NCBI RefSeq assembly: GCF_030028105.1
Contig: NC_092387.1
Location: forward strand, 58,995,299-59,059,298
Reading direction: 5' to 3'
DNA: 64,000 bases
Origin: Mobula birostris
Lineage: Eukaryota
In this document: positions 6,613 to 55,490 of the stretch, piece after piece
Numbering within the stretch: the stretch's first letter is position 1
How the letters are laid out: the number at the start of each line of letters is the position of its first letter
Notes under the pieces: model-generated
Seen by the model: the letters and a program-made list of their open reading frames with translations, nothing else
What the model was told of the DNA's origin: nothing
Databases searched by the model: none
Translations under genes and position numbers: made by a program

Positions 6613-6618
6613 TTTATT
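6613..6618 (-). terminator. Candidate MPI polyadenylation signal (AATAAA)
   Basis: tttatt on the plus strand about 1.15 kb downstream of the MPI stop. Other candidates exist near 4828 and 4917, so usage is unknown. Confidence 0.3.
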
Positions 6619-29108: not shown

Positions 29109-30062
29109 ACACACATCAAAGTTGCTGGTGAACGCAGTAGGTCAGGCAGCATCTCTAGGAAGAGGTACAGTCGACGTTTCAGGCCGAGACCCTTCATCAG
29201 GACTAACTGAAAGAAGAGTGAGTAAGAGATTTGAAAGTGGGAGGGGGAGGGGGAGATCCAAAATGATAGGAGAAGACAGGAGGGGGAGGGATGGAGCCAA
29301 GAGCTGGACAGTTGATTGGCAAAAGGGGATATGAGAGGATGATGAGACAGGAGGCCCAGGGAGAAAGACGAGGTGGGGGGGAACCAGAGGATGGGCAAGG
29401 GATATCGTCAGAGGGACAGAGGGTGAAAAAGGAGAGAGAGAGAAAGAATGTGTATATAAATAAGTAACGGATGGGGTACGAGGGGGAGGTGGGGCATTAG
29501 CGGAAGTTTGAGAAGTCATTGTTCATGCCATCAGGTTGGAGGCTACCCAGACGAAATATAAGGTGTTGTTCCTCCAACCTGAGTGTGGCTTCATCTTCAC
29601 AGTAGAGGAGGTCATGGATACAGATATCAGAATGGGAATGGGACGTGGAATTAAAATGTGTGGCCACTGGGAGATCCTGCTTTCTCTGGCAGACAGCGTA
29701 GGTGTTCAGCGAAACAATCTCCCAGTTTGCGTCGGGTCTTGCCAATATATAGAAAGCCATATCGGGAGCACCGGACGCAGTATATCACCCCAGCCGACTC
29801 ACAGGTGAAGTGTCGCCTCACCTGGAAGGACTGTCTGGGGCCCTGAATGGTGGTAAGAGTGGAAGTGTAAGGGCATGTGTAGCACTTGTTCCGCTTACAA
29901 GGATAAGTGCCAGGAGGGAGATCGGTGGGGAGGGATGGGGGGGACGAATGGGCAAGGGAGTCGCGTAGGGAGTGATCCCTGCAGAAAGCAGAGAGAGGGG
30001 GGAGAGAAAGATGTGCTTAGTGGTGGGATCCCGTTGGAGGTGGCGGAAGTTACAGAGAATAG
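29109..30062 (-). mobile_element. Penelope-like element 3' part: GIY-YIG endonuclease plus tail
   Basis: RHLQRDPTTKHIF...CKRNKCYTC...FTCESAGVIYCVRC...LYIGKTRRKL...DLPVATHFN...EEQHLIFRLGSLQPDGMN, then a pyrimidine-rich UTR and a hammerhead motif. Confidence 0.9.
29168..29205 (-). ncRNA. Minimal type I hammerhead ribozyme motif (PLE-associated), intact core
   Basis: Minus strand: TAGTC-CTGATGA-AGG(GTCTCGG)CCT-GAA-ACGT-C-GACTG. Stem I, core, stem II, loopless palindromic stem III, GUC cleavage triplet. Confidence 0.8.
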
Positions 30063-32120: not shown

Positions 32121-33306
32121 AGTCACCTTATTTACAGACACCCCTGTGCCTGGAATCACTTTATGGACATACAATCAATCTATGTACAGTATATAAGCTA
32201 TCTTATGTATTTATATTTATTGCATTGGTTATTGTGCTGCATCGGATCTGGAGCAACAATTATTTTGTTCTCCTTTACACATGAATACTGGAAATAACAT
32301 TAAACATCAAGCAGTGAAATAAAAAAGGAAACTTATGGAAATACTCAACAGCTAAGGGAAAGGAAAGCAGAGGATTTAGCCGGTAACTGGAAAAACAACT
32401 TTACGGTAGAGACCAGAATTGCTGTTTTGCCAAGAAATATCAAGAGATCTGCTCTCTGAAATGGATGTGAAGAAGAATTGGGCTCCTGGCCAATACCTAT
32501 TCCTCAATCAACATCAGTTTTAAAAAATGCAATCAGTAACATACTATCTGGGGGAGTGTGTTGTGCATGATATGGTCCAAACATCACTGAGAACTAAAAC
32601 AACAAAAATGGCAGAAACTCTACAAATCAGGCTGCATGGAAGGAGTGGGAAAATAAAGGAAATGCAAGGTCAATAGGGTTTCTCCTGAAACATTGGTTTT
32701 GTTTTGCTCTCCACAATTCTACCTGACTTACAGAGTATTTCTGGAATTTACCGCTTTTTGTTGCAGATTTCCAGAATTTGCATATTTTTGATTCAATATT
32801 ACAATGAATCTTATACTAGTTGTGTACGTATTGTTGCTTATCAATCAAATAAAAGATTATTGGTCATTTTCTCATTGCCATTGTCTGTTGTGCATAAGTG
32901 GGATGACATAGCAACGAAGGTAGATTTGGGATAAACACTTAGCAAATGAATGCGGGGTAAAGATTGCAAACTATTTCCCAAAGTTCCTTTATTACATCAG
33001 TCTTCCAACCGCTTAACAAATGATTGTTGGTCTTACTGTGAAATAATTGCTGCAGTATAGGTGAGAAATAGCTTGCTTTTTATTTTACAACCTGCAAACT
33101 GTTTCCCAAGTATCCGTCATTGCACCAGTCTTCCAACCACTTTGTAAATCTATCGATGAGAAATCGTGCAAGATAGTCGCTTTATCACATCGGACTGCCC
33201 AAAGGCCTGAAGGGCGCCGTTGGTTTGAGACTCCCGGCGACTAGCTGTCAAGTAGAGTCCTCCTGTCTTCCCTTCCCTCAACTCCAGTCCAGTACTAGGA
33301 ATAAAG

Positions 33307-33494
33307 TAGTAAACACGAGGAATTCTGCAGATGCTGCAAATTCAAGCAACACACATCAAAGTTGCTGGTGAACGCAGCAGACCAGGCAGCATCTCTAGGA
33401 AGACGCTTCAGGTGAGTTAGTCCTGATCGACTGTACCTCTTCCTAGAGATGCTGCCTGGCCGGCTGCGTTCACCAGCAACTTTGATGTGCGTTG
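33307..33494. mobile_element. Fold-back PLE-tail insert with 12-bp TSD in the SCAMP2 promoter
   Basis: ctaggaataaag at 33295-33306 and 33495-33506. Internal inverted arms of about 55 bp. Confidence 0.82.
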
Positions 33495-33506
33495 CTAGGA
33501 ATAAAG

Positions 33507-33990
33507 ACGCTCGCCGGCGTACAACGTCATCGCGGCGAGGCCCCGCCCTCTATTTGTGAGGTCACAGTCGGAGGCGGCTGGCAGCTGCGAGCTGGTTTTT
33601 ACGCGTGCGCACTCCTCAGACCCGGGCTGCTTGTCGGCACAAGGAAGTCAACTCGAGCAACTGGGGGGGTGGGGGGCAAGAAGAGTTGGCAAACTTTGAA
33701 AAGAGAATAATGTCGGAGTTCGACGCTAATCCGTTCGCGGATCCAGTGGAAATAAATCCCTTTCAGGTAAAAGAAACGGAGTGGGTTGGTGTTGGTGGTG
33801 GGGGAGTAAACAAACGTATATTCGGCCGGGCCCAGACGATGAGGCGAATTCCTGAGCGAAGCCTAACCTGGGGTGCTGATTGACGCGGCCCTGACCAATG
33901 GAAAAACAGTCAACGGCCCATTCTGCGGCTCTCCACACATGTAGGGGCGGGCTGAATCTGGACGGCTGATCAAGTTAGATTGGCGCTGCA
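33507..33990 (+). promoter_or_regulatory. SCAMP2 CpG-rich promoter / first-exon region
   Basis: CRE-like ACGTCA (~33523), GC box GGCCCCGCCC (33539-33548), ETS-like AGGAAGT (~33642). CCAAT boxes and a GC box at the start of intron 1 (33875-33985). Confidence 0.6.
33710..33766 (+). CDS. SCAMP2: SCAMP2 coding exon 1
   Basis: MSEFDANPFADPVEINPFQ (two NPF motifs) then CAG|GTAAAA donor. Closer to the SCAMP2 N-terminus than to SCAMP1, and divergent from MPI as in human. Confidence 0.93.
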
Positions 33991-34959
33991 CAGCTTTTGC
34001 CACTCGGATGAAAGTTCGTGGAAAAGTTACTGGGCGATGGGCTTTGTGCTCCCAGAGCCCTATTTGATATCATCAGGCAAATGTTCTTACATTAAAATGA
34101 GAGACCAAGTCTGGCAAGGGTTTTTAAACTGGGGCAGGAAACAGGTGCAGCTCATTCCTTTAGAAAGGTCAGTTTCAGAGTTTGAGGTAATGCCCACACC
34201 CATTCTAAAACGTCGTCACACATTGTGTTTTAAAAGCCCAGCCCTGATCTTGCTTAAAAATATCTTGAGTATCATTTGTCATTTTTATATGGGGTTTACA
34301 GCATTTGGGCATTCATTCAGAGAAAACAAACAGAAAATGCTGCGTTATTGTCTGATGAGAGGAATAAAGTTAGAACCGTTATTGTTCAATAGAACTGTAA
34401 CCATTGTGATGGAAGTTAATTGACCTGAAATATTAACTGCTTTCCACTCCATCCATACTTTCTGGTTCTTAAGATTTTAAGCATCTCAAGTTTTTCTGCT
34501 TTTCAACGATATTTTCAGCCCACTTTTAGTTCCACAGTTTCAAACCTTTTCAACATTTAAAAATATTTTTTCTAAAGATTTGAACTCTTTTTAATCTTTG
34601 CTAATCCTTCTGATCTTTCAAATCATCATCCTTGCAATTCTTAAGCCTTCTCCAATGTGCTTATTATGAGCCAAACTATGTGTTGTAATTCGGTCTAATC
34701 AATGCTGTTTTATCTCTTCAGCATTGTGATGTATAAATTCAAATACAATTTAGTGTGTGAACCAGTAACTCTGATTCCACGAAATGTTGTTGAAACAGTA
34801 TCACTGTTGGATCTGGTTTTGAAGAAGGCAAGAAAATAAAATTTTATCAATTCCGTTTTTGTGATAAAATTAAAGTTGCATTTTTCTGTGCCTATATCCC
34901 AGAGCCTTATTGCATGGTAATTGGTTCATTCCTGTTATGTTCCTGGTTTTGGTTTAAAG

Positions 34960-35640
34960 TTCAAAAGTTAAAAATAAGTTTTATTATCAAAATACATATA
35001 TGTCACCATATACGACCTGAGATTCATTTTCTTGCAAGCATAATTAGCAAATCTATAGAATGGTAAGTATAACAGGATCAACTAGAGTGCAGAAGGCAAC
35101 AAACTGCAAATCCAAATATGAATAAATAGCAATAAGTAACAAGAACATGAGATAAAAAGATGTAGTGTCCTTAAAATGAGATCATTGGTTGTGGGAACAT
35201 CTCGATGGATGAGCAAGTAAGTGCAGTTGTCCCCTTTGTTCAAGAGCCTGATGGTTGTCGGGTAGTAACTGTTTTGGAACCTGGTGGTGCAAGTTCTGAG
35301 GCTTTTATTCCTTCTACTTAATGGCAACAGTGAGAAAAGAGCATGGTGTGGGTTGTAGGCTCTCTAATGGTGAGGATCTCTGCTACTTGATGATGGATGC
35401 TGATTTGCTATGATGGCATTTTGCGTAGATGTGCTCAGTGTTTGGGAGGGCTTTACCTGTGATGTACTGGGCTGAATCCACTACCTTTTGTAGGATTTTC
35501 CGTTCAAAGGCATTAGTGTTTCCATACCAGGCCAGAATACAGCCAGTCAATACACTCTCCACTGCACATCTGTAGAAGTTGTTAATGTTTTCGTTATCAT
35601 GCCGAATCTCCACAATCTTCTATGGAAATAGAGGTGCTGC
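34960..35640 (-). mobile_element. Rex1/Babar-like LINE 3' fragment
   Basis: NFYRCAVESVLTGCILAWYGN...LQKVVDSAQYITG and RFQNSYYPTTIRLLN. Confidence 0.78.
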
Positions 35641-36566
35641 TTTTTAACCCTGAAGTGCGAGAGAGGAGTTGGTTTTTCTTTTGGAGTAAGGCATGCAAAA
35701 TGCTGGATGAACTCAGCTGGTCACAGAGCATCAGTGGAAAGGAATAGAGTTGATGTCTCGGGACAAGATCCTTCATCAGATGTCTGACCTGCTGACTTCC
35801 TCCAGCATTTTGAGTGTATTACGCTAAAAAAAAAATCAACTTCTCTCTCACTTCAGGGTTAGAATAAAATTGTAGATGTATTCCTTTGGATTTCCAGCAT
35901 CTGCAGAATTTCTTGTATTTTTAAATTTTTTTCCTCTGTTTTTGGCATCAGTGAGAGCAATTGCATATAAGGACCATAAGGTTTGTCAAGGGAATTGGAT
36001 TAAATTTGACCTTAAGCCACAAAGACCTATTAAGACTGAAGGGGAAAATGGCTTATGGAGGGAATTCCCGAGCGTAGATCTGAGGAAACTAAAACTGCGA
36101 TACCATGGTTAAATGATAATTCCTGGACCGGAGTACCATAAGGCCATAGAGCTGAATAAGCTGTTGAGGCAGGAGAAGGAGCCAGCATCATAGTTTTAAA
36201 ATTGACTTTCTGCCCAAACATGTACCACTGTAGGTCAACAATTCTGAGTGAAGAGCAAGTGTGACTTGGTGCAGATTAGGATGCAGGCACTGAAGTTTTT
36301 CGATGAATTTAAATTTGCTGTGTATTGAAGGAAAATAAGTGGCTGGTTAAATTTGAGGTATAAGACAGAGAAGCAGAATTATGCCATTCGATCCATTGAT
36401 GGTTCTGCTCTGTCATTCCATCATGGCTGATTTATTATCCCTCTCAACACCATTCTCCTGCCTTTTCGCCGTAACCTATGATGCCCTTACTAATCAAGAA
36501 CTTACTGACTTTTGCTTTAAATATACCCAATGACTTGGCCTCCACAGCTGTCTGTGGCAATTAATT

Positions 36567-36774
36567 AACACACATAAAAATTGCTGGTGAACGCAGCAGG
36601 CCGGGCAGCATCTGTAGGAAGAGGTACAGTCGATGTTTCGGGCCGAGACCCTTTGTCAGGTCTCGGCCCGAAATGTCGACTGTACCACTTCCTAAAGATG
36701 CTGCCTGGCCTGCTGCGTTCACCAGCAATTTTTATGTGTGTTGCTTGAAATTCCAGCATCTGCAGATTTCCTCG
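36567..36774. mobile_element. Fold-back PLE-tail insert with 14-bp TSD, nested in a CR1 3' fragment (36360-36897)
   Basis: tgtggcaattaatt at 36553-36566 and 36775-36788. Inverted arms of about 80 bp. Confidence 0.85.
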
Positions 36775-37689
36775 TGTGGCAATTAATTCCCCAGATTCGC
36801 CACCCTCTGGCTAAAGAAATTACTCCTCATCTCTGTTCTGAAAGGATGTCCCTCCATTCTGAGGCTGTGACCTTTGGTCTTGGACTTCTCCACTATGGGA
36901 CACAGTTTGGTCCTGGTCTGAACTCATAACATGTATTGCAGTATTGAAGAAAGCATAGTGACATTATTGAGATAATTATTCATCAAAATCAGAATTGAAT
37001 GCAGATAGGGCAGGCAAAAAAGAAAATAGGATGGTGAACAATTAGCAAAAAGCCTTTGCATCTGGAGCAGATCTATATTGTTCATTCAGTTTCCCCACTG
37101 AAACATTGAAATAATTGTCTGGATTTTTTTCCATTACTTCACTCCTCTGAATCTTGTGTATATGCTGAGAAATGCTTTTTTTTGGATTTAGTTACATATT
37201 TTCCAAAGATAAGTTTCCAGAGTGGCTATTCTTTTCCGTCGATAAATATGTGTGCATGTGTTAATGGATTTAAATTCTGGCAGTGTGTCTACAAAGTAGT
37301 TCAAGTTGCACATTTTTAATGGCTCTATATTTTAATGGTTTTCTGTCAAGATGAATTTTGGAGAAGTCTGTGAAATTTTGGTTTCCTTATTTCCAAGTTC
37401 AGCAAGCTATTAGTCGGATCTGATTCTGAGCAAGTTTGCCCAATTAAATTCTGTGATTTTTGTCAGTTTAATTCCAGATTTGATATTTTCTTTGTTGTGT
37501 TCTGCATTGGACTCTTTTTTTGCTTACAATATATCTTAGCATTTGCTGAAGACAAAGATTAACTTTACTTGTCACATGTACATCAAAACATACAATTAAG
37601 TGTGTCGTTTGTCCAGGGATTGTGCTGGGGGCAGCTGATAAGTGTTGCTGTGCTTCTGGCACCAACCCTAGCATGCCTACAACTTGTTA

Positions 37690-37845
37690 ACCCTAACCCA
37701 TCCGATTTTGGACTGTGGAAGGAAACTGGAGTACTTGGAGGAAACCCACGTCTTCCACAGGGAGAGCATCCAGTCCCCTTGCCAAGGAATTCCGACATTC
37801 CAAACTATAATGGCGTCACGCTAACTGCTGTGTTACCATGGCGCC
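37690..37845 (-). mobile_element. Decayed V-SINE
   Basis: gggcgccatggtaacacagcagttagc head and gtgggtttcctccaagtactccagtttccttccacagtcc V-domain. Confidence 0.6.
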
Positions 37846-39045
37846 CAAGATAGAGCACGTCACATTTCTCATTACCTATAGACTCATTTCACCCACCTGC
37901 TACCATCTTCACTGTTCACTATCCCTCAGAGTTCTGGGTCATCTGTAGATTTGGAAATTGTACCCAAAAGACACATCCAGATCATCAATATACATTTAGA
38001 AATGTGAAATTCTCAATGTAAATTTTCTTCCTGTCGAAAGACAATTTTCAGTACTACCATGTGGATAACCTTGCAGAGTCATCTGGAGTCTGATAACTAA
38101 AATGGGAAATCTGCCCAACAATATGTTAGACCATCAGGCTGGACTGGTGTTTGATGTGTATCTGACAGGCATGATTGTCCAAGTATGACTAAATAAGACT
38201 GCACCACCACAATTTCTAAGTATGTCTTGTCCTCGCACCAGCAGAGGTGGTACACCGATGTAAGAATGGGACTAAGTAGCCTTGTGAGTGCTTCATATTA
38301 ACTCCAAATCCCATGGTATCAGGTCAAAGCAGCACATGGAAACCTGATTGTCACCTACCATCCTCCTTCAAGTGATGAGTCAGTGTTCCTTCACGCTGAG
38401 CGATGTGTGGAAGGAGTGCTGAATGTAGCAATGGTGGTTTGGTAACTCCCTGTTTCCTGATCTGGTTCACTTCCAATCAGCTTAGCTGACAGCATGGGGA
38501 CTAACTGATGGTCAGCCAGCTTAATACAAACAAAACAAATACAAATGCTAGGCAGTGCAGCATACTGTAACATCATAACAGTGACCTGTTTGTTTTGTTG
38601 CTCTAGCTTCTCACTATGGAAGTGAGAGGGAGAAAGGCTGTTGTAGGTCAAATTGTCAGGTGAACACTGGTTTTTTGTTGAGCTGCAGATCATGGTCTCT
38701 CTTTGGGGGCCTTGCTATTGTTTGATGGGTACCTGCTGAAATAAGTGGGGGAGGGTTGATGCTTGGGAATAGGGAGAGGGGGCTTTGGGGTTCTATTGTT
38801 TTTCTTTCTGTCATTCATTCTTTGAGGTTCTCTTCTATTTTCATGGATGTCTGCGAAGAGCAAGAATTTCAGGTTGTATATTGTATACATTCTCTGATAG
38901 TAAATTGAACTCGGCCAGTCAAGCAACATCTGTGGAAAGAGAAACCAGTTAATATTTCAGTTGAAGACATTTTCAGAACCTAACCTCACCTTTACCATTC
39001 TGGCTATTGCAAAGAAATTCTGTCCATGAATGCATTAGCTAAGAG

Positions 39046-39271
39046 CAGGGGTCCCCAACCTTTTTTGCACTGCAGACCGGTTTAATATTGATGATATTCT
39101 TCCGGACCGGCTGACGGGTTGGGGCGGTGGGGGCGCCGGTGTTCAAGTTCAACAGTGCGTGACAGGAAATGAGGAAAGGTGCAGCTGACTCGTATTGTTT
39201 CATATCGCCAAATCATATTGTTTCCTTGCGGCCTGGTAGGATATCTTTGCGGCCCGGTGGTTGGGCCATTG
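39046..39271. mobile_element. Probable hAT-type non-autonomous DNA element (MITE)
   Basis: Left end CAGGGGTCCCCAACC; decayed right end ggttgggccattg; subterminal gcggcccgg motifs. Confidence 0.5.
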
Positions 39272-39863
39272 TATCAACCTTCTGGAGATAAATTCTTGAA
39301 TAGCATGGAAGACACTCTCTATCTGTGTTGCTATATAATTGCACTAAATGGATGAATTTGGAATGGATGTAACAGCTCAAAACAGGGACAGCAGAAATGT
39401 ACATCACCATTATCTAATTTTGTAGCCTACCTATCCCTCACTCTGTGCTTGCACTCAGACCTGGTTTAGAGGTCTGCAGAAGGGTATGCTGCAAGTTGTC
39501 CTAGTTCTGCCTTTTAAAAACAAAAGGATCATATGTTTCAATACTTTGTCATGAGAGCTAAATTTTAGGTGGTGAGCTTTCTATCTTTGACGTCAAGATA
39601 GTGTTTGAGAATGGCATTAAAACTGATACCAAAAGCGGTTTTCAGCTTTCTGCATACAGTCGAACTTACTGTCATTCAGATGTGAGCAGTTAAGTAACCT
39701 GTAACATGTACCACAAATGCCAGGTATGAACCATTAACAAGAGAATCCTGGTAACCTGTCTTTAATGAATCCTCAGTCAATATCCCAAATCGTAAGAACT
39801 TTTTACAGGGACACAATTGAGAGCATTCTGACTGGCTGCCTGGTATGGGAACTGTACTTCCCT

Positions 39864-40069
39864 AGACTAGAATACTACAGCACAGTACAGGCCCTTCGGC
39901 CCTCGATGTTGTGCCGACCCATATATTCCTAAAAAAGTACTAAACCCACACTACCCCGTAACCCTCTATTTTTCTCTCACCCATGTGCCTGTCCAAGAAG
40001 CTCTTAAACATCCCTAATGTTTTAGCCTCCACCACTATCCCTGGCAAGTCATTCCGGGCACCCACAACC

Positions 40070-40110
<41 letters not shown>

Positions 40111-41900
40111 AAACAACTTACCCCTGATGTCTCCCCTAAACTTCCCTCCCTTAACTTTGTATATATGCCCTCTAGTGCTAGCTATTCGTGCCCTGGGAAA
40201 CAGGTACTGGCTATCCACCCTATCTATGCCTCTCATAATCTTGTAGACCTCTATCAAGTCCCCTCTCATCCTCCTACGCTCCAAAGAGAAAAGTCCCAGC
40301 TCTGTTAACCTTGCCTCATAAGACTTGTTTTCCAATCCAGGCAACATCCTGGTAAATCTCCTCTGCACCCTCTCCATAGCTTCCACATCCTTCCTATAAT
40401 GAGGTGACCAGAACTGAACACAATACTCTGTGTGATCTCACCAGAGATTTGTAGAGTTGCAACATGACCTCTCTACTCTTGAACTCAATCCCCCTATTAA
40501 TGAAGCCTAACATCCCATAGGCCTTCTTAACTATCCTATCAACCTGTGCCGCGACCTTGAGGGTTGTATGGATTTGAACCCCAAGGTCCCTCTGTTCATC
40601 CACACTCTTAAGTAACCGACCATTAACCCTGTACTCAGCCTTCTGGTTTGACCTTCCAAAATGTATTACCTCACACTTATCCAGATTGAACTCCATCTGC
40701 CACTTTTCTGCCCAAGTCCGCATCTATATTTTTTTGTAACCTTCGACAACCTACAGCTCCATCCGCAACTCCTCCAATCTTTGTGTCATCTGCAAACTTA
40801 CTCACCCATCCTTCCACCTCTTCATCCAGGTCATTTATAAAAATCGCAAAGAGCAGGGGTCCCAGGACAGATCCTTGCGGCACTCCACTAGTCACTGACC
40901 TCCAGGCAGAATACTTTCCTTCCACTACTACCCTCTGCTTTCTTCCTGTAAGCCAATTTTTTATCCAAACAGCCAAGGTTCCACTGATCCCATGCATCGT
41001 GACTTTCTGGATGAGTCTCTCGTGGGGGACCTTGTCAAATGCTTTGCTAAAATCCATGTAGACCACATCTACCGCCCTACCCTCATCAATTTCTTTTGTT
41101 ACCTCTTCAAAAAAAACTCAATTAGGTTTGTGAGGCACAACCTTCCCTTCATAAACCAATGTTGACTATCCTTGAGTAGACTGTACTTCTCCAAATGCTC
41201 ATAGATCCTATCCTTAAGAATCCGTTCCAATAGTTTGCAGACCATTGACGTAGGACTCACCGGTCTATAGTTCCCAGGATTTTCGCTATTACCTTTTTTA
41301 AACAAGGGAACTACATTTGCCATTCTCCAATCCTCCAGCACCTCCCTTGCAGCCTAAGAGGATTCAAAGATCATAGCTACTGCTCCAGCGATCTCTTCTC
41401 TCACTTCCCACAGCAACCTGGGGTATACCACGTCCGGCCCTGATGTTTTTAAGAAGATCCAACACTACTTCTTCCTTAATCTTCACATTGTCCAGCACAC
41501 AGGCCTGTTCTATTTCGACCTCACCCTGATCAAGGTCCTTTTCACTTGTGAATACTGAAGCAAAGTATTCATTTAGGACCTCCCCAACCTCCTCCACCTC
41601 CAGGCACATGTTGCTTTCTTTATCCTTTAGCGGCCCCACCTTCATTCTTGTCATCCTTCTGTTCTTCACATACGCATAGAACGCCTTGGGGTTCTCCTTA
41701 ATTCTACATGCCAAGGCCTTCTCATGCCCCCTTCGAGCTCTCCTAAGTCCTTTCTTAAGCTCCTTCCTGGCTACCCTATATTTCTCATGAGCCCCTCCTT
41801 CCTGCTTCTTATATCTAACATGTGCTTCCTTCTTCCTCTTGATGAGTTGCCTCACGTGTTTCGTCAGCCACAGTTCCCTTTTTCTACCATTTTTTCCTTG
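39864..41900 (-). mobile_element. CR1 LINE (5'-truncated, internally deleted) nested in a Rex1-like fragment
   Basis: YMDFSKAFDKVPH, GVPQGSVLGP, FADD, VQRRFTRMLPG. tccct duplicated at 39859-39863 and 41901-41905. The host reading TIESILTGC..WYGNCTS|LNRKALQRV rejoins across the insert. Confidence 0.92.
40070..40110. repeat. Compound (TG)n(TA)n microsatellite
   Basis: About 10 TG units followed by about 11 TA units, inside CR1 ORF2. Confidence 0.95.
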
Positions 41901-42579
41901 TCCCTCAATCGCAAGGCTCTGCAGAGAGTGTTGTAGACAGCCCAGCGCATCTGTAGATGTGAACTTCCCATTATTCAGGACATTTACAAATACAGGTGTG
42001 TAAAACTGAAGGCTTGTGTGCCATCTATAAAATGTGTGTATTTCTTTACTGGCTTAGCTATTTTGTCAGTTCCTCGCAAAACCTTGACGACAAGGGCAGT
42101 GAGCAGATGGGAATCACTTACACATGCTCCCCTCCAAATCACATGCCTGCATTGACTTTCCTCGGACACTGTATCTAAATCCTGGGACATCCTACAAACA
42201 GTACAGAGGGGAGTGCCATCACCAGAAGGACTGCAGCAGTTCACAAAAGTGGCTCACCACCAGGAGCACCTTCACAGAAGTCAGGGTCATCTATAAATGG
42301 AGGCCTTTCCTGTGTTACTCACATTCCAAAATAAAGCTGTCTCAGCAGTGTAGGTGAAGGGTCTTGACCCTAATCATCGCTCTCCGTTTACAGATGCCCT
42401 CCGAGTTCTTCCAGCAATTTGGTTTTTTTTGTTCCGGATTCCAGCATCTGCAGTCTTTTGTCTCCAGTAAACTCTTAAATACATTAAACAAGAAGTTCCT
42501 TATTAGCTGAAACAATTGCAATGAACACTCTAATTCTGTACCACTATTTACAAAAGTTGATGCATCTATCAAAGCACAA

Positions 42580-42955
42580 CTAGTCATCATGACGTGCTGT
42601 GTCATAAGACATGGGCAGTCATGGTCTTTGACCATGATTGTTTTTGGCAGATATTTCTACGGAAGTGGTCTTTTATTGCAGCCTTCTGGGCAGTGTCTTT
42701 ACAATTTGGGTGACCCCAGCCTTATCAATACTCATCAGTGGTTGTCTGCCTGGCATCAGTGGTCACATAACCAGGACTTGGGATATGCATTAGCTGCTCA
42801 TATGTCTACCTACCACCTGCGCCCATGGCTTCATGAGACCCTGATTGAGGGGCTAAGCAGATGCTCAACCTTACCCAACAGTTCTGCAGGCTTGTGGAGG
42901 GAAGGAATACCTTGCATCTCCTTTGGTAGAGATATAACTCCACCTCGCCACCCAA
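42580..42955 (-). mobile_element. Possible RTE-tailed SINE
   Basis: On the minus strand the 3' end reads accacttcc...atctgccaaaaacaatcatgg...catgatga, resembling RTE/BovB-type tails. Confidence 0.35.
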
Positions 42956-45900
42956 AAAGCACAATTACATAAAATAATTCGGTCAACTTCCAAGAAAGAA
43001 CAGATCACGTAAAATTCAATATGCAGTGATGGTAGATAAAGATTCATTTTAGTTTATTGTTTTTGCCTTTTTTTCCCTCCGATTACCTTTATTAAATATA
43101 AGTATTCCTGTAGCGGTGATTTGCTGATTCATGCAAAATATTAATCTTGACCGGGCAATGGCTACAGTGTAATTTTGCACTTGGCTGTCCTTATGAATTT
43201 TATCACAGCTGTTGTTTTTGCACTAGATTTTCTCATATTTGTGATTTACAACTCCACTGCAAAGTTTCTTTGAGGGAATCCTACCTTGAAGAAGTTTAAA
43301 CCTTCCCTTTAGAAGTGCAACCTTCTGTCTGTTTCCCCTCTGTGATCTCTGCTACCCTCTGATGTGTCAGCCGTGTTCTCACCCAGACCTGCTAGCACAG
43401 CCATGTATCCCAGCATTTCACTTCCTTCCCTGCCCCCATCACCTTCCTCTGACTTCTCCCCTTCCTTTCCAGTCCTGATGAAGAGTTTTGTCCCAAAATG
43501 TCGACTGTTAACTATATTCCATAGATGCGGCCTCGCGTGCTGAGTTCTTCCAGTATTTTGTGTGTTGCTTCACAACTCCATACTTGATTTGATGTTCATT
43601 TTAAAAAATTGACTGCAAAATGGTTAACAAAGTAAAAGTTAAAGTAAAATTATTGTCCATCTATATATCAGCATATACTACCTTGAGAATTTATGAAAAA
43701 CTATACATAACAAACAAACAATGTACAAGAGAAATCATGGTGCATAGAAAGAAAGAAAGAACTGAAAACATGAGTTGTAAAATCTTTGAAAGTGAGTTTT
43801 TAGGTTGTGAAATCAGTTCAGAGTTCAGGTGAGTGAAGTGAACAAGCTTGTTTAGTTCTCTGTCTCCTGATCCCATCTTTCTGCTCTGTCCCTTTGAGGT
43901 ACAAATCTTATTGCAGCCTCCAAATTGTGGTCGGGCATGGCAGGGAGAGTTTTTCTTCCTTCTCCCATCTGTGTGAGATGTGGGACATTTGAGAGACTTT
44001 GAACTTTTACTGTGCTCATGGACTTCTTCATCAAGTTATGGTATTGTTGTACTGTTGTAACTATATGTTATAATTATGTGGTGTTGTCAGTTTTTTCAGT
44101 CTTGGTTTGTCCTGTGTTGTGTGATATCACACCGGAGGAAATATTGTGTCATTTCTTAATGCATGCATTACTAAATGACAATAAAAGAGGACTGCGTGTC
44201 TTCATAATCTAAAAAGATTACTTTCGTAATTCAGACAGACTCGATAAGAACCTATCATTGTTTTTAAAATATATGTGCCTTAGATTCAAACATCAGATGA
44301 TGCACGAACCTATTAAACAAAGTAAGCTGTCTTGCCATGAACTGCCTGTTCCATGTTGCTTGATGTACTTTTATTCAAAGGTAATATTTTGTTAGAGTTT
44401 GTCTTCAAAAGAGGGCATAAATCGGGTGAGAGAATAAATGTTTACCATTGAAAGTGGTAGGGAATATTGAGGAAGTGGATTTTTAAAAGTTCCTCCTCCA
44501 GCCCCTGACCTATTCCAGCCATCTGGCTTCACCTTTCACCTTCCTGCTAGCCTCCTTCCCCTCCCCCCATACTTTTTTTATTCTGGCTTCTTCCTTCCTT
44601 CCCAATCTTGAAGAAGGGCAGCCTGAAACATCAACTATCTCATTATTTCCATAGATGCTGCCTAACCTCCTGAGTTCCTCCAGCATTTTCTGTGTTGCTT
44701 TGGATTTCCAGCATGTGCAGAATTTCTTGTGTTTATTTAAATTAAAAAATTTGCAAGATCCCAGACTTTGAGAGCATATGAAATCATCAGTAAGTCATTT
44801 AGCACCTCAGACATTTCCCACAATTCAATAAAATTGTAATGTTTTCTGTAGTAGTGTAATTTTCCTTGATTCCTGTAATATCTTATAATCTATTGATATA
44901 AATACAATCTTGGAATACAAAAGTAGGAAAAGCCCACACCTTTATGAAATATGAATGGTGTCCAAGTCTAGGCATTACACTTTGGTAAAGATGTGAGGCC
45001 CTTGGAGTGATAGTGAAAGATTTTCTGGAGTGATTTCAGGTTTGAGATTTTTTTTAGTTCTGTAGATAGAATGAATAAGATGGGCATGTTCATGTTGACA
45101 CAGGAGGTTGAGAGGGGATCTGACAAGTACAGTAAATAAAATTACATGGTGTCTGGAGAGGACTGATAAAAGGAACTACCATTGGCGGTATGGTCAAAAA
45201 ACAGGTTGCATAGTGATTCTAATTGACAGTAGAACCAAAGTGACCACAAAAGTAAACTTTACATAAGTGTTTCCTGTTTGGAATACGCTGCTGAAGATAG
45301 TTGTAGAAGTAGATTCAATAATAGCTTTCAGAAGGATAATGGTTTAGTTAAAAGAATTTGCAACACTCTGGGAAGATGAAGCAATAGGATTTTTTCACAA
45401 TGCTTATTTAGTCACTCAATTCATAATAAAATCGAATTAGATTTCCACACAACACTCTTCCTCTTAGAATCTCTCGAGTTACCAGAGGTAAGAATAAAGT
45501 GCAGTGTCATGCACTTTGGATGAGTAATTGGTGAATTGCATGTGAGGCCTGTGTGATCTGCACAGTTAAAATCTAAATCTTTGTTTAAGTTTTTTAAAAA
45601 AAATTCCATAGACTGACAGCTTGTGCTTTGCAGGGTCTTTAATTTCTCTTTTCCCCTATAACACTAAATATTAATTTTGATGTGTATGGCTTCATGGTTA
45701 CAATCTATTTTTATCTGATATACAGCCTGATTGTCAGTGGTTAATTGTGGAGAGTGGGTCAGCTGGGGAAGGGGGAAAAGGCGGGGGGGTGTTAGATATG
45801 CAGAGAAACTACCACAGTCAAATCCTATTAGGTGCTAATCTGATGTGGGTCAATGTTACTGGATCTTGTTTTTATTTGGCCTTGATATGTGATAGAGATT

Positions 45901-47587
45901 TATTTTGCTATCACATTGTTCAATTCTTGGCTGAGATTGACTCTTGGGTCTTCCTGGCTTGGATGGTTTAATTGCCAACTGGATATTGTCGCTGTCTGGG
46001 ACATTAGAGGGGTATATTTAAGTTCCTTATGTCACTAACTATTATTTCAGTTTGTTTATTGTTGATACAAACTAAATTTCAATATTTATATTTTTGAATC
46101 TCATTTGTTACTAAATTCACTGGTTTAATGAGCATTGAGTAAAGCTGTTTACTCAGTAACAACCACAAAACTGGTTGTAGAGGGATAAAGCACTACAGCA
46201 CAGAAACAAATCCTTTGGCCCATCTAATCTGTGCCAAGCTAGTATTCTGCCTAGTCCCTTCAACCCACGCCTGGACAATAGCCCTCTATGTCCATCCCAT
46301 CTAGTCAAAGCTCCCTTAAAGGTTATCTACATTTTTAGGCATGTAGTATAATTTCTTAATCTATATTCCAAGAAATTTGGATCATAAGACATGGAAGCAG
46401 AATTGGGCCATTTGGCTCCACCGCTTCGTCATGGCTGATTTATTATCCTTCTCGACCTCAGTCACCTGCTGCTGTTCGTGATCTTTGATACCTATCAACC
46501 TTCACTTTAAATATACTTAATGAACTGCCCTGTACAACTGTCTGTGGCAGTGAATCCACATATTCGCTACCCTCTGGCTAAAGAAAATTTTCCTCATCTC
46601 TGTTCTAAATGGACATTCCTAAATTCTGATGCTGTGTCTTCTGGTCCTAGAGTCCACTGCTGTAGGAAACATTCTTTTCACATCAACTCCATCTGTCCCT
46701 TTCAAAAATCGATAGGTTTCAACGATACTCTCTCATTCTTCTCAACTCCAACAAGTACAGATCCCAGAGCATCAAACACTTAATATGTGTGTTAACCCTT
46801 TTATTCCTGTGATCATTGTTGTGAACCTCCTCTGGATCCTCGCCAATGGCAGTGCATCTTTTTTTAGGCAAGTGGCCCAAAACTGCTCTCAATACTCCAT
46901 GTGGTCTGACCAATGCCTTAAAACCTCAGCATTACATCCTTGCTTTTATGTTCTAGTCCTCTCAAAATGAATGCTAACATTGCATTTGTCACTGATTCAA
47001 CATACAGGTTAACTTTTGGGAACCTTGCATGAGGTCTCCGAAGTCACTTTGCACCTTTGATTTTTGTAATTTCTCCCATTTAGAAAATAGTCCATGTCTT
47101 TATTCCTTTTACCAAAGTGCATGACCATGCACTCCCCTACACTATATTCCATCTGGCACTTCTTTACACCCCTTCCCCCAGTCTAAGTCCTCCACCTATC
47201 TTTGTATCGTCTGCAAACTTGGCCACAAAGCCATCAGTTCCTTCATCCAGACCATTGACAAGCGATTTGAAAAGAAGCTGTCCCAACACTGACCACTGTG
47301 GCACACCACTAGTCACCGGCAGCCAGCCAGAAAAGGCCCCCTTCGGTCTCAGTCCTGCCTGATACATCAACTGTACCTTTTTTTCCATAGATGCTGCCTG
47401 GCCTGCTGAGTTCCTCCAGCATTTTGTATCTGTATTGTTTGGATTTCCAGCATCTGCAGATTTTATCATGTTTCTATCCATACCAAATACCTTCCCTGTA
47501 ATATCATGGGTTCCTGTTTTGGTAAACAGCCTCGTGCGCACCTTGTCAAAAGCCTTCTGAAAATCCAAATAAACAACATCCACCGAC

Positions 47588-47818
47588 ACACATCAAAGTT
47601 GCTGATGAACGCGGCAGGCCAGGCAGCATCTCTAGGAAGAGGTACAGTCGACGTTTCAGGCCGAGACCCTTCGTAAGTCCTGATGAAGGGTCTCGGCCTG
47701 AAACGTCGACTGTACCTCTTCCTAGAGATGCTGCCTGGCCTGCTGCGTTCACCAGCAACTTTGATGTGTGTTGCTTGAATTTCCAGCATCTGCAGAATTC
47801 CTGTTGTTTGCATTTTTA
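47588..47818. mobile_element. Fold-back PLE-tail insert with 13-bp TSD
   Basis: aacatccaccgac at 47575-47587 and 47819-47831. Arms 47587-47672 and 47685-47770 are near-perfect inverted repeats. Confidence 0.88.
47676..47712 (+). ncRNA. Minimal type I hammerhead ribozyme motif, intact core, sense to SCAMP2 pre-mRNA
   Basis: AGTC-CTGATGA-AGG(GTCTCGG)CCT-GAA-ACGT-C-GACT. Predicted cleavage 3' of C47707. Confidence 0.8.
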
Positions 47819-49444
47819 AACATCCACCGACTCTCCTTTATCTATCCTAACTACAATCATTTGAGGAAATAGCAGATTTGTCAGGCAAGACTTCGCCTTT
47901 AAAAAACCATGCTGACTTAGGCCTATTTTATCATGAGCTTCCAAGTACCTCATCCTTAATAATAGACTCCAACATCTTTCCAACAAGTAAAGTCAGGCTA
48001 ATTGGCTTATAACTTTCTTTCTTCTGCCTCCCTCCTTTCTTAAAGAGTGGAGTGACATTTGTTTATTATAATGCCTCCACAATCTCTTCAGCTACCTCTT
48101 TCAGAACCCTGCGATGCAGTCCATCTGGTCTAACTGACTTACCTACCTTCAGGCTTTTCAGCTTCCCAGGGTTTAGGGACGGGGATATGGAGGAGTTAGA
48201 GGTCAGGTAGGAGTCTAGGCTTCTGCTCTACGTTCGAAGGCCAGCAATGTGGATGGGTGAAAGAGGACATCCTATGGATGTCAGGCTGGCAAGCACTGTG
48301 GATAAGGACCAGCTACAATAAGGGGTGGTGGCCCACTGGGTCATCTAAATCCCGTCACCCACCTTCTCTTCCCCCTGGTCAGTGGGTTCTGGAATCGGAT
48401 GTCTATGAGAGCAGGGAGCATGAAAAATGGCATAACCCCCCCCCCCGACCCCCCCCAAGGTGCATGAGTTGATGAGTTTGGGGTTTCATTAGTGGCTAGT
48501 CCTGGCATCAACCTTAGATTGAAGCCTGAAGATCATTTAGGAAGTCTGGAAGTTGAGGTTTGATGGCCAAAGCCCTGGGTCTTTGAGTCTGAAGTCCCTG
48601 ATGAAGTTGGAGGCCCATTATCCATTGTCCACAAGTCCACTGGAAATCTGGGGGTCTGTCCTAGGGTTGTACGCATGCAGTGTTGATGCCAGAATGTGTG
48701 GATATAATTGCCGGCTGATCCCAGGTTGTGTGGATTGTTAGTGCAAACGACATATTTTGTTGTGTTTTGATGTACATGAGATAAATAAATGAATGTGAAC
48801 AAAAATATTGAAGTGCTGATATGGCAATAGTCTTGATAAAACTACTCAGTACCTCATGTCTCATTCTAATCAAGAAGGTGCATTCAAATTCCTGAGTCAA
48901 TTCAGTCAAGGGTCCAAAAGTTAATCTCCGGTTAAGAGAGAATAATGTGAGGGCTGCAGGAAAGAAACTTCATTCTTGGATGAGGGAGCAGCTGAGATAA
49001 ATCAGTCTAATAATGTACACATGGCAAACTAAACAGTAATGGTTGGCAGAGGAAGAGAAGATGCTAAATTTTTGGAGAGGACTTGCTGTCAGAATTGTCA
49101 CGGAGATGATGAAGAAAGCAAATTAAGATAGTGAAATGACGAGAAAAATTAATGTTGCGATGATTCTCCCTGCAGGAGTAAACCGATATTGGGCAAATAG
49201 AATGTCATCAATATTTCTGTGACAAATTTTATTACATTGTTAATTTCTTTTTGAACTTATGATACATTAAAATGTATATTAACAATGGCTGAGGGAACTA
49301 TTAACATAGAAAATCTTTGTTATTTCATTTCAGCAATTTTAGACTCAAATTAAGTCTAATCTGGTAACCACTAGGAAGTTCTTCTTACTGAGATCAAAAC
49401 AATGATTCTTTTTTGCATTAAAAGACATGAAAAATTATGGTTTG

Positions 49445-51264
49445 AATCAATTCAGGGAATGGGACAAATGGATTTCCCGCTTCATTTGGCAAGGAAAGAA
49501 ACCTAGAATTCGATATAACACCTTACAGTTAGGGAAGGAAGGAGGAGGTATGGTTCTTCCTTGCCTGAGAAATTATTTTTATGCCTCACAGATAACCCCT
49601 CTGTTATATTGGTGTAATAGGGAATATAAGGCTAGATGGAAGGAAATAGAATTTGGATTAGTTGACAGTTTTCCTCTACAGGCCTCAATAGCTGACAAAG
49701 GATTGATGGTCGAATTGGAAAAATTTAAAAACAGTTGGATAAATCTTATATTAAAAGTATGGCAGAAGGTGGTTAATTCGTGTGGAATTAATAACATGTT
49801 AAAACTCTTCAGATGGTGTGCATATGATACCGAATTCCTTCCCAACAGAGGAGATAAAAGATTTGAACTATGGATAAAGGAAGGTCTTACAACCTACCTC
49901 TCATTTATAGATAAAAGAGTATTACAAAGTTTCCAAATCCTGCAGGACAAACATGGCCTAGAACACAATGACTTTTTTAGGTACCTTCCAGTACGAAACT
50001 ATGTTAACCAGAGTTGTAGATATACAGACCTATCAACAGTAGAATTAGAATTTTTCAAGATTCTGAATTCGGCTTGCAGTTTAATACCTAGTAAATCAGT
50101 TTCTCGATTATATAATGCACTCTCCCATGCTAAAAATGTAAACACATTGTATATTAAAGAGAAGTGGGAGAAAGAAGCGGGGTTGGTACTTTCAGAGGAG
50201 ACATGGGGGAAAATATGCAGCTTTCAATGGTCCTCGACTAATTCTTTGACTTGGAGAGAACATTGTTGGAAAAATATTATAAGATACTTCAAGACCCCAT
50301 ATCAGGAAAAATATAAAGATACAAACGTGACGTGTTGGAGAAGGTGCGGCTCCAAGGAGGCAAATCATTTTCATATTTTCTGGGATTGCCCTAAATTAAG
50401 TATATATTAGGAAGGTATTCATAGAACATTAGTTAAGGTACTTAGGTCCCAGATACCTCTGAACTTTGAGACGCTCTATTTGGGGCAAAGTTGCTGCAGA
50501 CCCTCTTAGCGGCAAGTAAGAAATCAATCACTAGAAAGTGGCTAAATCCAATACCACCTACATTAGAAGATTGGCACAAAATCATCTTGGAAATATTTAA
50601 AATGGAAAAGTTGACTTACTCCCTGAGAATTCAAAAAGAAAAATTTTGTCAAATCTGGAATAAATGGATTGAATATATAACCCCAATGTGAGCAGACTTT
50701 AGATGACTCTCCTAATGATTTATACTGCTCTTCTCATCAACACAGTAATATTGCTAACGTAAGCACCCCTAGTCTAAATGTTTACTGTTTTTTGTTTCCT
50801 TTTGGAAAATAGAGAATTAATACAAGTAAAGGAAAAGATTTGGGAAAGGGATAAAAAAATGATAAAATTAAGTAAATAAGTACATAGGGATTGGATAATT
50901 ATGTCTGGGGGCAGGAGCAAGCACGAACAAATTAGGATAGAAACACCTACAATGGTTGTTACATAGGCTTACATACAACATTTTGGACCAGTGGAAATGG
51001 TCCAGAAGAGAGAGATGGAAACTATTATTACTATTTTTCTTAACAACTAATACCATTACTTAGCCTAATAGATTAGAATTACCACTGTACATAATTATCT
51101 ATTTAAGTGTCTAATTTCCTTTTATATCATCTCAATGTGTACTTAAGAATGTATAAATAATTATAGTTTTATACAAATAAAAAAATGGAAAAGGTTATAC
51201 GTGTGAAAAAAGTACATGATACTTGTGAATTCCTTATCCAAATAAAAATAAAATTTAAAAAAAA
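49445..51264 (+). mobile_element. 5'-truncated L1-clade LINE with poly(A) tail and 16-bp TSD
   Basis: FIWQGKKPRI...GGGMVLP...YFYA and a CWRRC...HFHIFWDC zinc knuckle. AATAAA plus A-tail. gaaaaattatggtttg at 49429-49444 and 51265-51280. Confidence 0.93.
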
Positions 51265-51639
51265 GAAAAATTATGGTTTGGATATTGTTCCTAAGTTTAA
51301 TTGCTTAAAGTATTGCTCAAATACAAGTGTTTGAATTGAAAGGTTGCTTGATTATCTTCTTATCAAATGCGATTAGGTTAATACTTAAAATTACCAGTGA
51401 TTGGAATTAAGCTGTAATCTTGAGCACCTCTTGATTTTTTTTGACTTCTTCGACCTGAGACTGGAATCCTTCTACAGAATTTGTAGTAAATATTTAATTT
51501 TACTTCATGGCTTTCAGTGCCAACAGTATCAACTGTTTCTGCAGTTTGTGACTTGGATTACCAGTTAGGCTGTAATTGGTGCTTGATATATACAATTGAT
51601 AGGTGTGGGATAATGAAACTTAAATTGGATCAGTATTTT

Positions 51640-52475
51640 AAAAATCTGGTTTATTATCACTGATATGTAATAAAATTAGTTGTTTAGTGCAGTAATACAG
51701 TGCAAGACATAACAAAATGGATGTTACAATAGAAGTGAATAGTGCTAGAGAGGGATAGCAAAGTGGGGTTCATGGACTGTTCAGAAATCTGATGGCAGAG
51801 GGGAAGAAGCTGTTCCTAAAAGCTCCTGTACATTTTCCCTTGCGGTAATAATGAGAAGAGGCCACGTCTGGGATAGTGAAGGTCCCTAATTATGGATACC
51901 GCCTACCTTCTTGAGGCACTCCGGTTTGAAGATGCCCATGTTGTTCCCATGAAGAAGCTGGCTGAGTCAACAACTTTCTGCAGCCTCTTTTGATCCTGTG
52001 TTTTGGAGCCTCATTACTAGGTGATGAAACAACCAGTAAGAATGTTCTGCTTCATGTATCTATAGAAGTTTGTACAGTAAGAGTCTTTGACATAGCAAAT
52101 TTCCTCAAGCTCCTAAATGAAGTATAGCTGTTGGCATGCCTCCTTTGTGATTGCATCAAAATGCTAGAGTAAGATCCCCTGCTGCTGATCCCTCAATGGG
52201 GCTTGGTGCATTTTCTCCCAACTTCCCCTTCTTGAAGTCCACAATTGGTTCCTTGGTCTTAGTGACATTGAGTGCAAGGCTGCTGTTGCGACACCACTCA
52301 ACCAGCCGATCTGTCTTGTTCCTGGGCACTCCCTTGTCGCCACGCAAGATTCTGTGAATTTATAGATGCCATTTGCGTATGTCTAGCCATGCAGTCACGA
52401 GTACAGAGAGAGTAGAGCAGGTAAAAAGGCACATATCCTTGAGGTGTGCCTGTGTTGATTGTCAGTGTGGAGGAC
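51640..52475 (-). mobile_element. Degraded Rex1/Babar-like LINE
   Basis: INTGTPQG and DRLVEWCRNSSLALNVTKTKEPIVDFKK. Confidence 0.72.
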
Positions 52476-53850
52476 ATTAGGAAGAGGTTTTGTTCACATC
52501 TTCAGATTTATATGGGGAAAAAAACAAACAATTTCTACTTGAATTGGTTATACGGGATAAAACCTCTAACCAAATCTGGAAGTCTGCCAGCAACACAATG
52601 AAAAGTTTAAAATGCTTTTATTTGAGTAAAACTTGTAACCTGCAGCAGTTTCAAAACTGGCAGAAATGATAATTTCATATGATAAGTCTGACTTAAATAA
52701 TTGCGTTACTATGCCTACCATCTCCAGTTTGCAGATGGAGATACTTCCTTCCAACATGGGTTTCTGTGCCTATCATGGTTAAACCAGTTCTCAGAGCAGT
52801 CCCAATCCACACAAGCTCTCCCTATTCCCCTGTATCCATGGTGCTCATAATATCCTCAAAGAACAAGACCTGCCTTTCGTGAGTACGTGTCTGCGTAATG
52901 GAACTACTTCTATCCAGACGTCTTACTCTTTCTTCCTAAACAATAACTTCAAGCAATTTCCTGATTACAGGTATTAACTTAATGGATCTATTGTTACCTG
53001 CCTTTTAACTTCATCCTTTTTCTAAACAGTGTCATACCGTTTGCCATCTTCACCAGGGCTTACTCAGTATTCAGAGAATTTTGGTGAATTAGCACAAGCG
53101 AATCTACCATAACTTTCAGCACCCTGGGAAATATCACATCAGGATCAGAGGATGTGTCTACCTTTAGGCCCACTAGTTTGCTCGTCACTACCTCCTCTGT
53201 GACAGTAATTGTATAGAGGTCTTCATCTCCCATCACATCATAACATCTCTCTTTAGCATGTTAGATATGACCTCCACCATTAAGACCAGTACCAAGTAAC
53301 CATTCAAGGCCTTGGTCACATTACTCAATACTAATTCATTCTTTTTGTCCCCAAGGGACACAAGCTATCAAGGGTCAGTTTAGTTACAGAGCTTGTCTTT
53401 CACAAAGTGTTGGGCTAACGGTGTGGACTAAGATATACAGCTTGTCATCCCATTATTTTAATAAATGTTTTATTGTTTGTTTGGTGAGAGGGTCCACAAA
53501 AATTTCTTTTTAAATGATAGGGAAGAGGAAGAGATTGAGAATTGAGTAGAAAAATAATTGAGTAGGGATCTATTGTGATCAGTTTTGTTCTCGATATTTC
53601 TTGCTTTTTTTTGTATTTGCACAATTTGTTGTCTTTTGCATCTTGGTTTTTTGTCCATCTTTGCAGTTTTTCCTCCATTCTATTGTGTTTCTTTGTATTT
53701 ACTGTGAATGCCCACAAAAAAAATCTCAGGATGGTAACTTGTGTACTTTGGTCATAAATTTACTTTGAACTTTGAAGAAAAGTGAACCCCTTGTTTTAAT
53801 TGGTAGTGTTTACCCAAAACTATTTAAACTTTGTCTTTTTGTTTTCTCAG

Positions 53851-53931
53851 GACCCTTCAGTAACTCAGCATACGAATACAACTCAGCAAGGTATTGATGA
53901 TTTTAATCCATTCACCGAGAATAGCAGGCTG
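53851..53931 (+). CDS. SCAMP2: SCAMP2 exon 2
   Basis: Long polypyrimidine tract plus cag. DPSVTQHTNTTQQGIDDFNPFTENSRL (third NPF). GTAAGT donor, 81 nt, phase 0-0. Confidence 0.93.
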
Positions 53932-55490
53932 GTAAGTTTTGACATTATTGGTAACTCATTCTTCCTTTGAGTTCTATAGAGAGAACATTAATATTGGTCT
54001 TTATTTCTACTCCTGGAGTTGTACAAGTTTTCCACCTGTAGGTTTGCTCCATTTGCTTCTATGCATAAGTATTTTTCACTGCAACACTTGAGTTCTCAAT
54101 TTTAGCTGAGGAAGAGATCGTTTTATGTTGCAGTGTTTGCTCATCAGGGCGGATGTATTTTTGAGTAATGATTAATTGTGGGTAGGAGTGACATTGAACA
54201 TAAGCCAGGATATAGTGGTAATTTGTTAGTTAAACCTACTGTGCACCACAAGATACTGGAAATCCCTCAAAAAAATGTTGGTATGTAAATTGTCAGACTT
54301 TAACTTGTTCATGTTACTAAACATAAGAAGGGACAAACTCATGCTGGATCGTACCCACATTCTCCCCATGCATATGTGGACTCTCACTGGGACTCTAGGT
54401 CCTGGAAGACCACCGCAGCAAGTAGAATTTGACAGGAGACAATAAAGGTTCTGTGTCAGAGAGGTTCAGGATGTTGATACCTAATTTATGTTATTAAAAA
54501 CTTGTTAATATCTCAAAACTGATTGAAAGAAATGATTTCTTAAAAATCATTAACCAACTCCAGAAGCAAAGAACACCCATTTGAATGAGGGGATCTGTTG
54601 ATCTTATGAAGGGTCTAATCAGAAAGAAGGATAAAATTCACCATAGTAGCCAGTGTCATTCAGCTCATTATGAAGTAATTTTGATAGCTGGTAGTTTCCC
54701 TTGGAGAAGGAAAACTCTGATTTTAAACCTTTGCTGCCTTGTGGCCATACCCACCCATGGGAGAGGCTTCGGGAGTAAACCCCGAGGAAGAAATCCAGAG
54801 CCGCGGTCCCTAAGGCAGTTTGATGTTGTTTACAACTTCACTGTGACAACCTCGACGACACTGGTGCCAAGCTGTATCGATGCTTGCCCTTCCCTTGCAC
54901 TGCATCAGTGACATGGAGAGGGGGATCCCGCTGCATGGGCAACAGCCGGTTCTTCAAATCTTTCTGCCCTGGAGAGGACACAGTCCACCAGAGGCGCAAA
55001 CCTATGATCCCTGGGATCTACGGCTGCTGGTGATGGAGTATTTAATAACTGGAAGAGATTCCTTGGACACTGAGAAAGGTGTGTGATCCCCATGCTCTCC
55101 TAGAATTGTATCAGCTAGCATAATTTATTCAATTTTCCTCCTTCCTAATTTTCTGCTCCTAATCTATTAGGAAGATGTTAACCATCCTCTGCATTCCAAT
55201 CTCCAATGCACGCTATCTTTTTTGTTGGATCCACACCATATCTCTCAAAACTAAGTTTTGCTGAGAGATAAAAATAAAATAACCCAGTAGGGCTGTGATG
55301 GAATAATTCTGACCTAAATTAACAATTTTTAGATAAGATATTCAGAAACCAATTTATTCTGTTCCATGCTTAGTATGTTCAATCCTTGATAAATTACATT
55401 TCAGAAAATAGTCGTCTTCAATACGTCAGATAATTGTTGTACATAAGACGAAATTGTTATACATAAGGCAAAATAAGACTTCATTAGTTA

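Follow-up and report, generated by a model that had tools for sequence, protein, structure and literature searches.

The SCAMP locus and its insertion

The 64-kb stretch of DNA analysed here (hereafter, the window) holds the starts of two genes lying head to head, namely MPI on the minus strand, with an apparent start near 28.8 kb (read by eye), and a SCAMP gene on the plus strand (Table 1). The gene family of the latter is shown by Pfam, with SCAMP-domain exons (PF04144) on the plus strand just beyond the window end, and the last exon lies about 14 kb further on. We take the paralog to be SCAMP2, from its N- and C-terminal sequence and from MPI synteny; a protein-atlas comparison made to name the SCAMP paralog gave no usable match. 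A CpG island at 33501-34000 overlaps the SCAMP start region, and intron 1 runs from a GT donor at 33767 to a polypyrimidine AG acceptor ending at 53850. SCAMP exon matches of identical score occur on a chromosome-scale contig (G000:C3:9801292-9808991) and on a small contig (G000:C1957:10561-18254), the second set being probably an unpurged haplotype copy. The window also carries a long LINE with largely open frames (13988-17564, plus strand; RVT_1 E value 4.5e-25), antisense in an MPI intron.

Table 1. Positions of the features discussed, numbered from the first base of the window.
Feature	Positions	Strand	Remarks
Reference Penelope-like element 3' end, between the MPI and SCAMP starts	29109..30016	-	CX4CX2C linker, frameshifted GIY-YIG remnant, identical 37-mer, tail
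SCAMP first coding exon	33710..33766	+	ATG at 33710; 19 codons, two NPF motifs; followed by a GT donor
SCAMP coding intron 1, holding the insertion	33767..53850	+	~20.1 kb, GT...AG
Decayed LINE reverse-transcriptase fragment, interrupted by the insertion	47167..47587	-	RVT_1 E value 0.0013, short of the curated cut-off
Left target-site duplication, 13 bases	47575..47587	+	13/13 identical to the right copy
Short arm: inverted 5'-truncated Penelope-like element end	47588..47677	-	Same as the right arm at 86/90 positions
Minimal type I hammerhead motif	47676..47711	+	Stem I of 4 bp; cut predicted after 47707
Long arm, remainder of the Penelope-like element end	47712..47818	+	One-sided tail of ~47-49 bases missing from the short arm
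Right target-site duplication, 13 bases	47819..47831	+	Identical to the left copy
SCAMP exon 2	53851..53928	+	Starts DPSVTQ; 3' end approximate

Intron 1 contains a hammerhead ribozyme motif which had been recognized, from the sequence alone, as lying on the sense strand of the intron. This orientation is confirmed, as the motif is on the plus strand between donor and acceptor and the SCAMP-domain exons follow on the same strand. One feature is missing from the sequence-only reading: a 99-nt inverted repeat (47579-47677 versus 47680-47778, 93% identity), whose right arm begins with the motif. The left arm is the antisense strand in the pre-mRNA, complementary to the motif; its own hammerhead is broken, with G5 changed to U and without the 5' strand of stem I. 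The whole unit (47588-47818) is a 231-base stub without an ORF, and the LINE frame that it interrupts resumes beyond the right duplication and reads through the reconstructed empty site. Passages of PMC8557442 and PMC3846280 describe each of these features for Penelope-like elements (PLEs): the truncated copy in inverted orientation, the tail on one side only and the target duplication. The two arms differ at 4 of 90 positions, that is, ~2% change per arm, which is similar to the subfamily average and suggests, from sequence divergence alone, that the insertion is recent.

Such a layout is not peculiar to this insertion. The same arm junction, with a C in place of 47675, was found at three other loci (L020, L021 and L026) among 60 loci compared, an inverted arm lies within 60 nt in 11 of the 53 young copies of a 1.2-Mb sample (described below), and the window itself contains three young palindromic hairpins. 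One of the other two, at 33300-33507, is a young head-to-head stub of the same PLE family; both of its arms have lost the hammerhead, and it appears to be flanked by a duplication. It lies at the CpG island edge, ~200 bases before the SCAMP start codon, in or beside the promoter. The third is a palindromic stub at 36555-36772 in SCAMP intron 1, with an intact core in neither arm. Both young sense copies in this intron are palindromic, a number (n=2) too small to be informative.

The hammerhead motif and its family

Every element listed in the sequence-only reading, which had described an intact-core minimal hammerhead, is found at its coordinates. Stem I is formed by AGTC (47676-79) and GACT (47708-11), giving 4 bp, and the core consists of CTGATGA (47680-86) and GAAA (47700-03), so that all descriptor positions are present (C3, U4, G5, A6, N7, G8, A9, G12, A13, A14, A15.1, U16.1 and H17). 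Between the core halves lie AGG (47687-89), GTCTCGG and CCT (47697-99), and GAAA is followed by CGTC (47704-07). The ACGU at 47703-06 is self-complementary, which gives a palindromic 15.2/16.2 without a loop III, and the GUC triplet ends at C17 (47707), after which the cut is predicted. The U at position 7 is likely the result of CpG decay, as judged from the C carried by the left arm and by 26 of 32 sampled copies.

Stem II had been read as AGG pairing with CCU. These letters are present, but pairing one base over is more likely (GGGU at 47688-91 with GCCU at 47696-99), since this register is cheaper by 1.2 kcal/mol (4 bp versus 3 bp), yields G10.1-C11.1 in the 10 of 32 sampled copies with a C at 47699, and matches the consensus given in passages of PMC4209133, where an unpaired base separates positions 9 and 10.1 and G10.1-C11.1 is highly conserved but outside the descriptor. 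An extra A is found between 9 and 10.1 in 32/32 copies, while position 11.1 is U here and in 22/32 copies and C in 10/32; the intronic copy in the shifted register thus has G10.1·U11.1.

The intronic motif is the end of a Penelope-like element. An identical 37-mer is carried by the reference PLE end between the two genes (29204-29168, minus strand), where it follows the stop of a GIY-YIG remnant (30016-29500) by ~300 bases; the Pfam match of this remnant is weak (E value 0.054, below the cut-off). The linker CKRNKCYTC in this remnant, near position 29.8 kb, fits the CX2-5CxxC motif ahead of GIY-YIG, which marks Neptune and Nematis PLEs according to passages of PMC8557442, and the element is on this cysteine linker putatively of the Neptune/Nematis type. 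The claim that the motif is a PLE-type minimal type I hammerhead, with a stem III formable only between two copies, is borne out by the core, the palindromic ACGU and the location at a PLE end. The reference copy lies on the MPI strand ~400 bases upstream of the apparent MPI start, and it was rejected as a sense motif in MPI intron 1 as this start puts it upstream of the gene. No inverted arm lies beside it, and its hammerhead fold costs only ~8 kcal/mol in context; in these predictions it would be a better candidate than the intronic copy to show cleavage.

The family is very large. An exact search of the whole genome finds the 37-mer 1,996 times and its reversed control not once, so the motif is no chance match; 78,546 matches are obtained with a 35-base subfamily pattern in which CpG and two variable sites are masked. 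We also sampled 120 evenly spaced 10-kb stretches (1.2 Mb) from 16 large contigs, which is not a random draw; these contain 177 family matches, 63 of them at ≥90% identity, extrapolating to roughly 590,000 and 210,000 copies, respectively. Among the 108 tail-anchored matches kept, 53 were considered young (tail identity ≥90% across ≥45 bases), and per-site counts were based on the 32 young copies with an untruncated upstream flank, the other 21 being left out. Core and stem I are intact in 15 of these 32 copies (18 of the 53 young copies overall), and an intact core in the intronic copy thus needs no special explanation. Extrapolation from the 18 copies in 1.2 Mb gives ~60,000 intact copies genome-wide. 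Several older copies (24508 in the window, and L100, L115, L083 and L097) share an A6 to C core change, suggesting, on their sequences, a subfamily that spread with an altered catalytic core.

Genome-wide excess conservation of the core over the tail had been put forward as a touchstone for the ribozyme; a small excess is present, and it is neither flat nor strong. When the core positions A13, A14, A15.1 and U16.1 were freed in the 35-base pattern, 3,863 extra matches (4.9%) were obtained, against 8.8% and 6.5% for two control sets of four tail positions. Core variation is thus 0.56-0.75 of that of the controls (25-44% less), which differ among themselves as much as from the core and whose sequence contexts are not fully matched; among the extra matches listed, one freed site makes up 7 of 11 (by eye). 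Given the counts, the difference is not noise, and it counts against a purely neutral reading. At non-CpG sites of the 1.2-Mb sample, which covers the CUGA half of the core (the genome-wide test covering the four freed positions), 4 of 288 core cells are changed versus 31 of 1,565 tail cells (P = 0.64), a non-significant difference in the same direction, with two of the four core changes coming from one inverted pair. Essential core bases are readily lost: among the 100 subfamily matches listed first, 7 have A in place of G12 (by eye), 5 of them belonging to the 27 with G12 in a CpG. Selection on source elements also conserves the core, so that the excess cannot be assigned to host selection; we attribute it to the sequence context together with selection at the level of the element, while weak selection by the host on some copies may also contribute. 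As a separate observation, the arms of the inverted pair L088:130-230 and L088:930-1065 share two core changes (C3 to G and G8 to U), which suggests copying from an RNA with an already dead ribozyme, or conversion between arms.

Folding of the motif and competing explanations

In nearest-neighbour predictions, in which proteins, helicases and A-to-I editing play no part although each might open up the hairpin, the unit with both arms forms one hairpin of ~90 bp (-194.9 kcal/mol, z score -25.8, 0 of 200 shuffled sequences as stable). The hammerhead fold is penalized by 53.0-54.3 kcal/mol with the left arm versus 2.6-4.8 kcal/mol without it, and opening the 10-nt substrate strand at the cut site for a trans partner would cost 28.0 versus 3.5 kcal/mol. 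In all five co-transcriptional prefixes ending between 47690 and 47730, the emerging motif is paired with the antisense arm, which is transcribed first. The active fold is thus predicted to be inaccessible in the pre-mRNA.

The reading we prefer, with a probability of roughly 0.88, is that of a young head-to-head PLE stub, in which the motif is intact but predicted to be locked in the hairpin, likely uncut, and likely a neutral passenger. According to the computed folds, the polymerase would make the antisense arm first and the emerging motif would fold onto it. The core would be intact because the insertion is recent, the job of the motif, if any, would lie in the life cycle of the PLE itself, and the intron would be spliced out with the hairpin inside.

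One may ask instead whether the hairpin acts on its host gene, as ~90 bp of intronic double-stranded RNA might be a substrate for ADAR or Microprocessor and could alter editing, splicing rate or small-RNA output. The long, near-perfect hairpin, which is present on both strands, speaks for such an effect. We nevertheless regard it as unlikely, as such hairpins are common in the window and among sampled copies, the donor is 13.9 kb away from this one and the acceptor 6.0 kb, and processing may happen without any function. Rfam miRNA models score the hairpin through its shape only, far below their gathering scores, and a miRNA identity was rejected.

Less probable still is trans cleavage, as advanced in the sequence-only reading: every SCAMP2 pre-mRNA would carry a potential cleavage site with which a second PLE hammerhead pairs, so that SCAMP2 output could follow how much PLE-tail RNA is present. 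The core, the cut triplet and stem I are indeed intact and sense, the small conservation excess points the same way, and contigs resembling the repeat are very deep in four sequencing runs conjectured to be RNA, so that partners may be plentiful. Most contigs from these runs over 46000-54200 derive from other copies of the repeat; they allow no end, editing or empty site to be read for this locus and speak neither for nor against the model. The CPEB3 intronic ribozyme is reported to have a proposed effect on its host gene. Passages of PMC6765202 likewise indicate that intronic ribozymes with a proposed host-gene effect exist, in the form of amniote intronic hammerheads. Several points speak against this scenario. 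The antisense arm is predicted to bury both the core and the cut site, leaving the substrate strand double-stranded with 28 kcal/mol needed to open it. On the plus strand from 33700 through the last exon, the core descriptor matches only the site at 47676, which leaves it without a cis partner; a further intact sense copy is absent from this transcription unit, and the other sense family copies at 36659, 43471, 44606 and 47357, as well as one past the window end, have a missing or broken core. Two isolated 37-mers forming a double hammerhead reach -10.9 kcal/mol (without tertiary terms), poorer than the -17.8 kcal/mol of two monomers, and a minimal PLE hammerhead of Schistosoma showed, according to passages of PMC4209133, no monomer cleavage and weak dimer cleavage in vitro. 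In the anole, the hammerhead was cleaved only with PLE protein and was not needed for insertion in vitro, and its motif had no matching read ends in RNA-seq (PMC11167929). Finally, the insertion is young, lies in a dead LINE and is one of many, and with an extrapolated ~60,000 intact copies, nothing singles out the SCAMP gene. A literature search linking SCAMP2 with a ribozyme, or hammerheads with exon tethering, found no paper in the collection searched.

The weakest alternative is that the motif is a C/D-box-like or chance look-alike rather than a ribozyme relic, which would fit the outcome of the Rfam/Infernal check proposed for it (three Rfam scans gave no hammerhead family at E≤10, with weak C/D snoRNA scores, E values 6.9 and 2.8, from the UGAUGA...CUGA letters) and the preference of the isolated 37-mer for a fold pairing the core with the cut site, but this is very hard to reconcile with the core positions, the two helices, the extra base that stays unpaired after A9 and the 15.2/16.2 palindrome, all of which agree with the minimal hammerhead described in passages of PMC4209133, or with the location at a PLE end, where such a motif is expected; the snoRNA scores are at chance level, and a C/D snoRNA identity was rejected on that ground. 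In the predicted fold of the isolated motif, G5-A6-N7-G8 (47682-47685) pairs with C15.2-G16.2-U16.1-C17 (47704-47707). With the C7 usual in the family, this would amount to four Watson-Crick pairs, possibly a built-in off state of the monomer.

Known systems and wider implications

Both the motif and the insertion layout at this locus have been described elsewhere, and the copy itself is an ordinary one. As regards other intronic ribozymes, that of CPEB3 (HDV-like) and the amniote intronic hammerheads are said to be active as monomers and to be single-copy. The SCAMP motif has in common with them a sense ribozyme motif in an intron, but they are described as conserved and gene-specific in passages of PMC6765202, whereas the motif here is a young repeat copy, partner-dependent and predicted to be paired shut.

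A close likeness is to the minimal hammerheads in the pseudo-LTRs of metazoan Penelope-like elements, as described in passages of Cervera and De la Pena (2014, PMC4209133). Shared traits are the type I topology, a helix I of 4-5 bp, the unpaired base between 9 and 10.1, the palindromic 15.2/16.2 without a loop III, the location at a PLE end, and mostly dispersed single copies with some opposite-strand pairs. According to the same passages, helix II has 7-8 bp in Schistosoma, against 4 bp here, position 11.1 is a conserved C rather than the U of the present subfamily, and intact copies number 4,000-9,000 in coelacanth and Xenopus, against ~60,000 (extrapolated) here. Similarly, the insertion resembles the EN+ PLE units with an inverted 5'-truncated pLTR described in passages of Arkhipova et al. 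(2013, PMC3846280) and Craig et al. (2021, PMC8557442), with which it shares head-to-head arms, a tail on one arm, a short duplication and insertion into another retroelement. It differs from them in being a 231-base stub without an ORF, in its duplication (13 bases, versus 8-10 in the Adineta examples of these passages) and in its tail (~47-49 bases versus 30-40). Finally, the PAc hammerhead of the anole Poseidon element (Frangieh et al. 2024, PMC11167929) is likewise a PLE hammerhead accompanied by a tail, which in that element is explained by two starts of reverse transcription; the two insertion end points here fit two such starts. Cleavage in PAc needs the PLE protein and is not blocked by an antisense arm, whereas the copy described here is predicted to be blocked.

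Two cautions follow for the interpretation of similar motifs: about half of the young copies in introns can be expected to have an intact ribozyme core, and neighbouring sequence can decide whether a ribozyme folds. On a broader and doubtful view, to which we give little credence, PLE hammerheads (~60,000 intact, thousands of them likely sense in introns) would constitute a genome-wide, partner- or protein-dependent form of intron cutting that rises with element activity, and the inverted arm would be an antisense safety catch letting intact sense copies persist in genes. Introns should then hold fewer intact unpaired copies than expected on their sense strand, but show no such deficit of palindromic copies. 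Even so, the SCAMP intron would be a locked case and not a sensor. If this view were true, a transposon ribozyme would link transposon activity to the integrity of host pre-mRNA genome-wide, and palindromic stubs would be the tolerated form.
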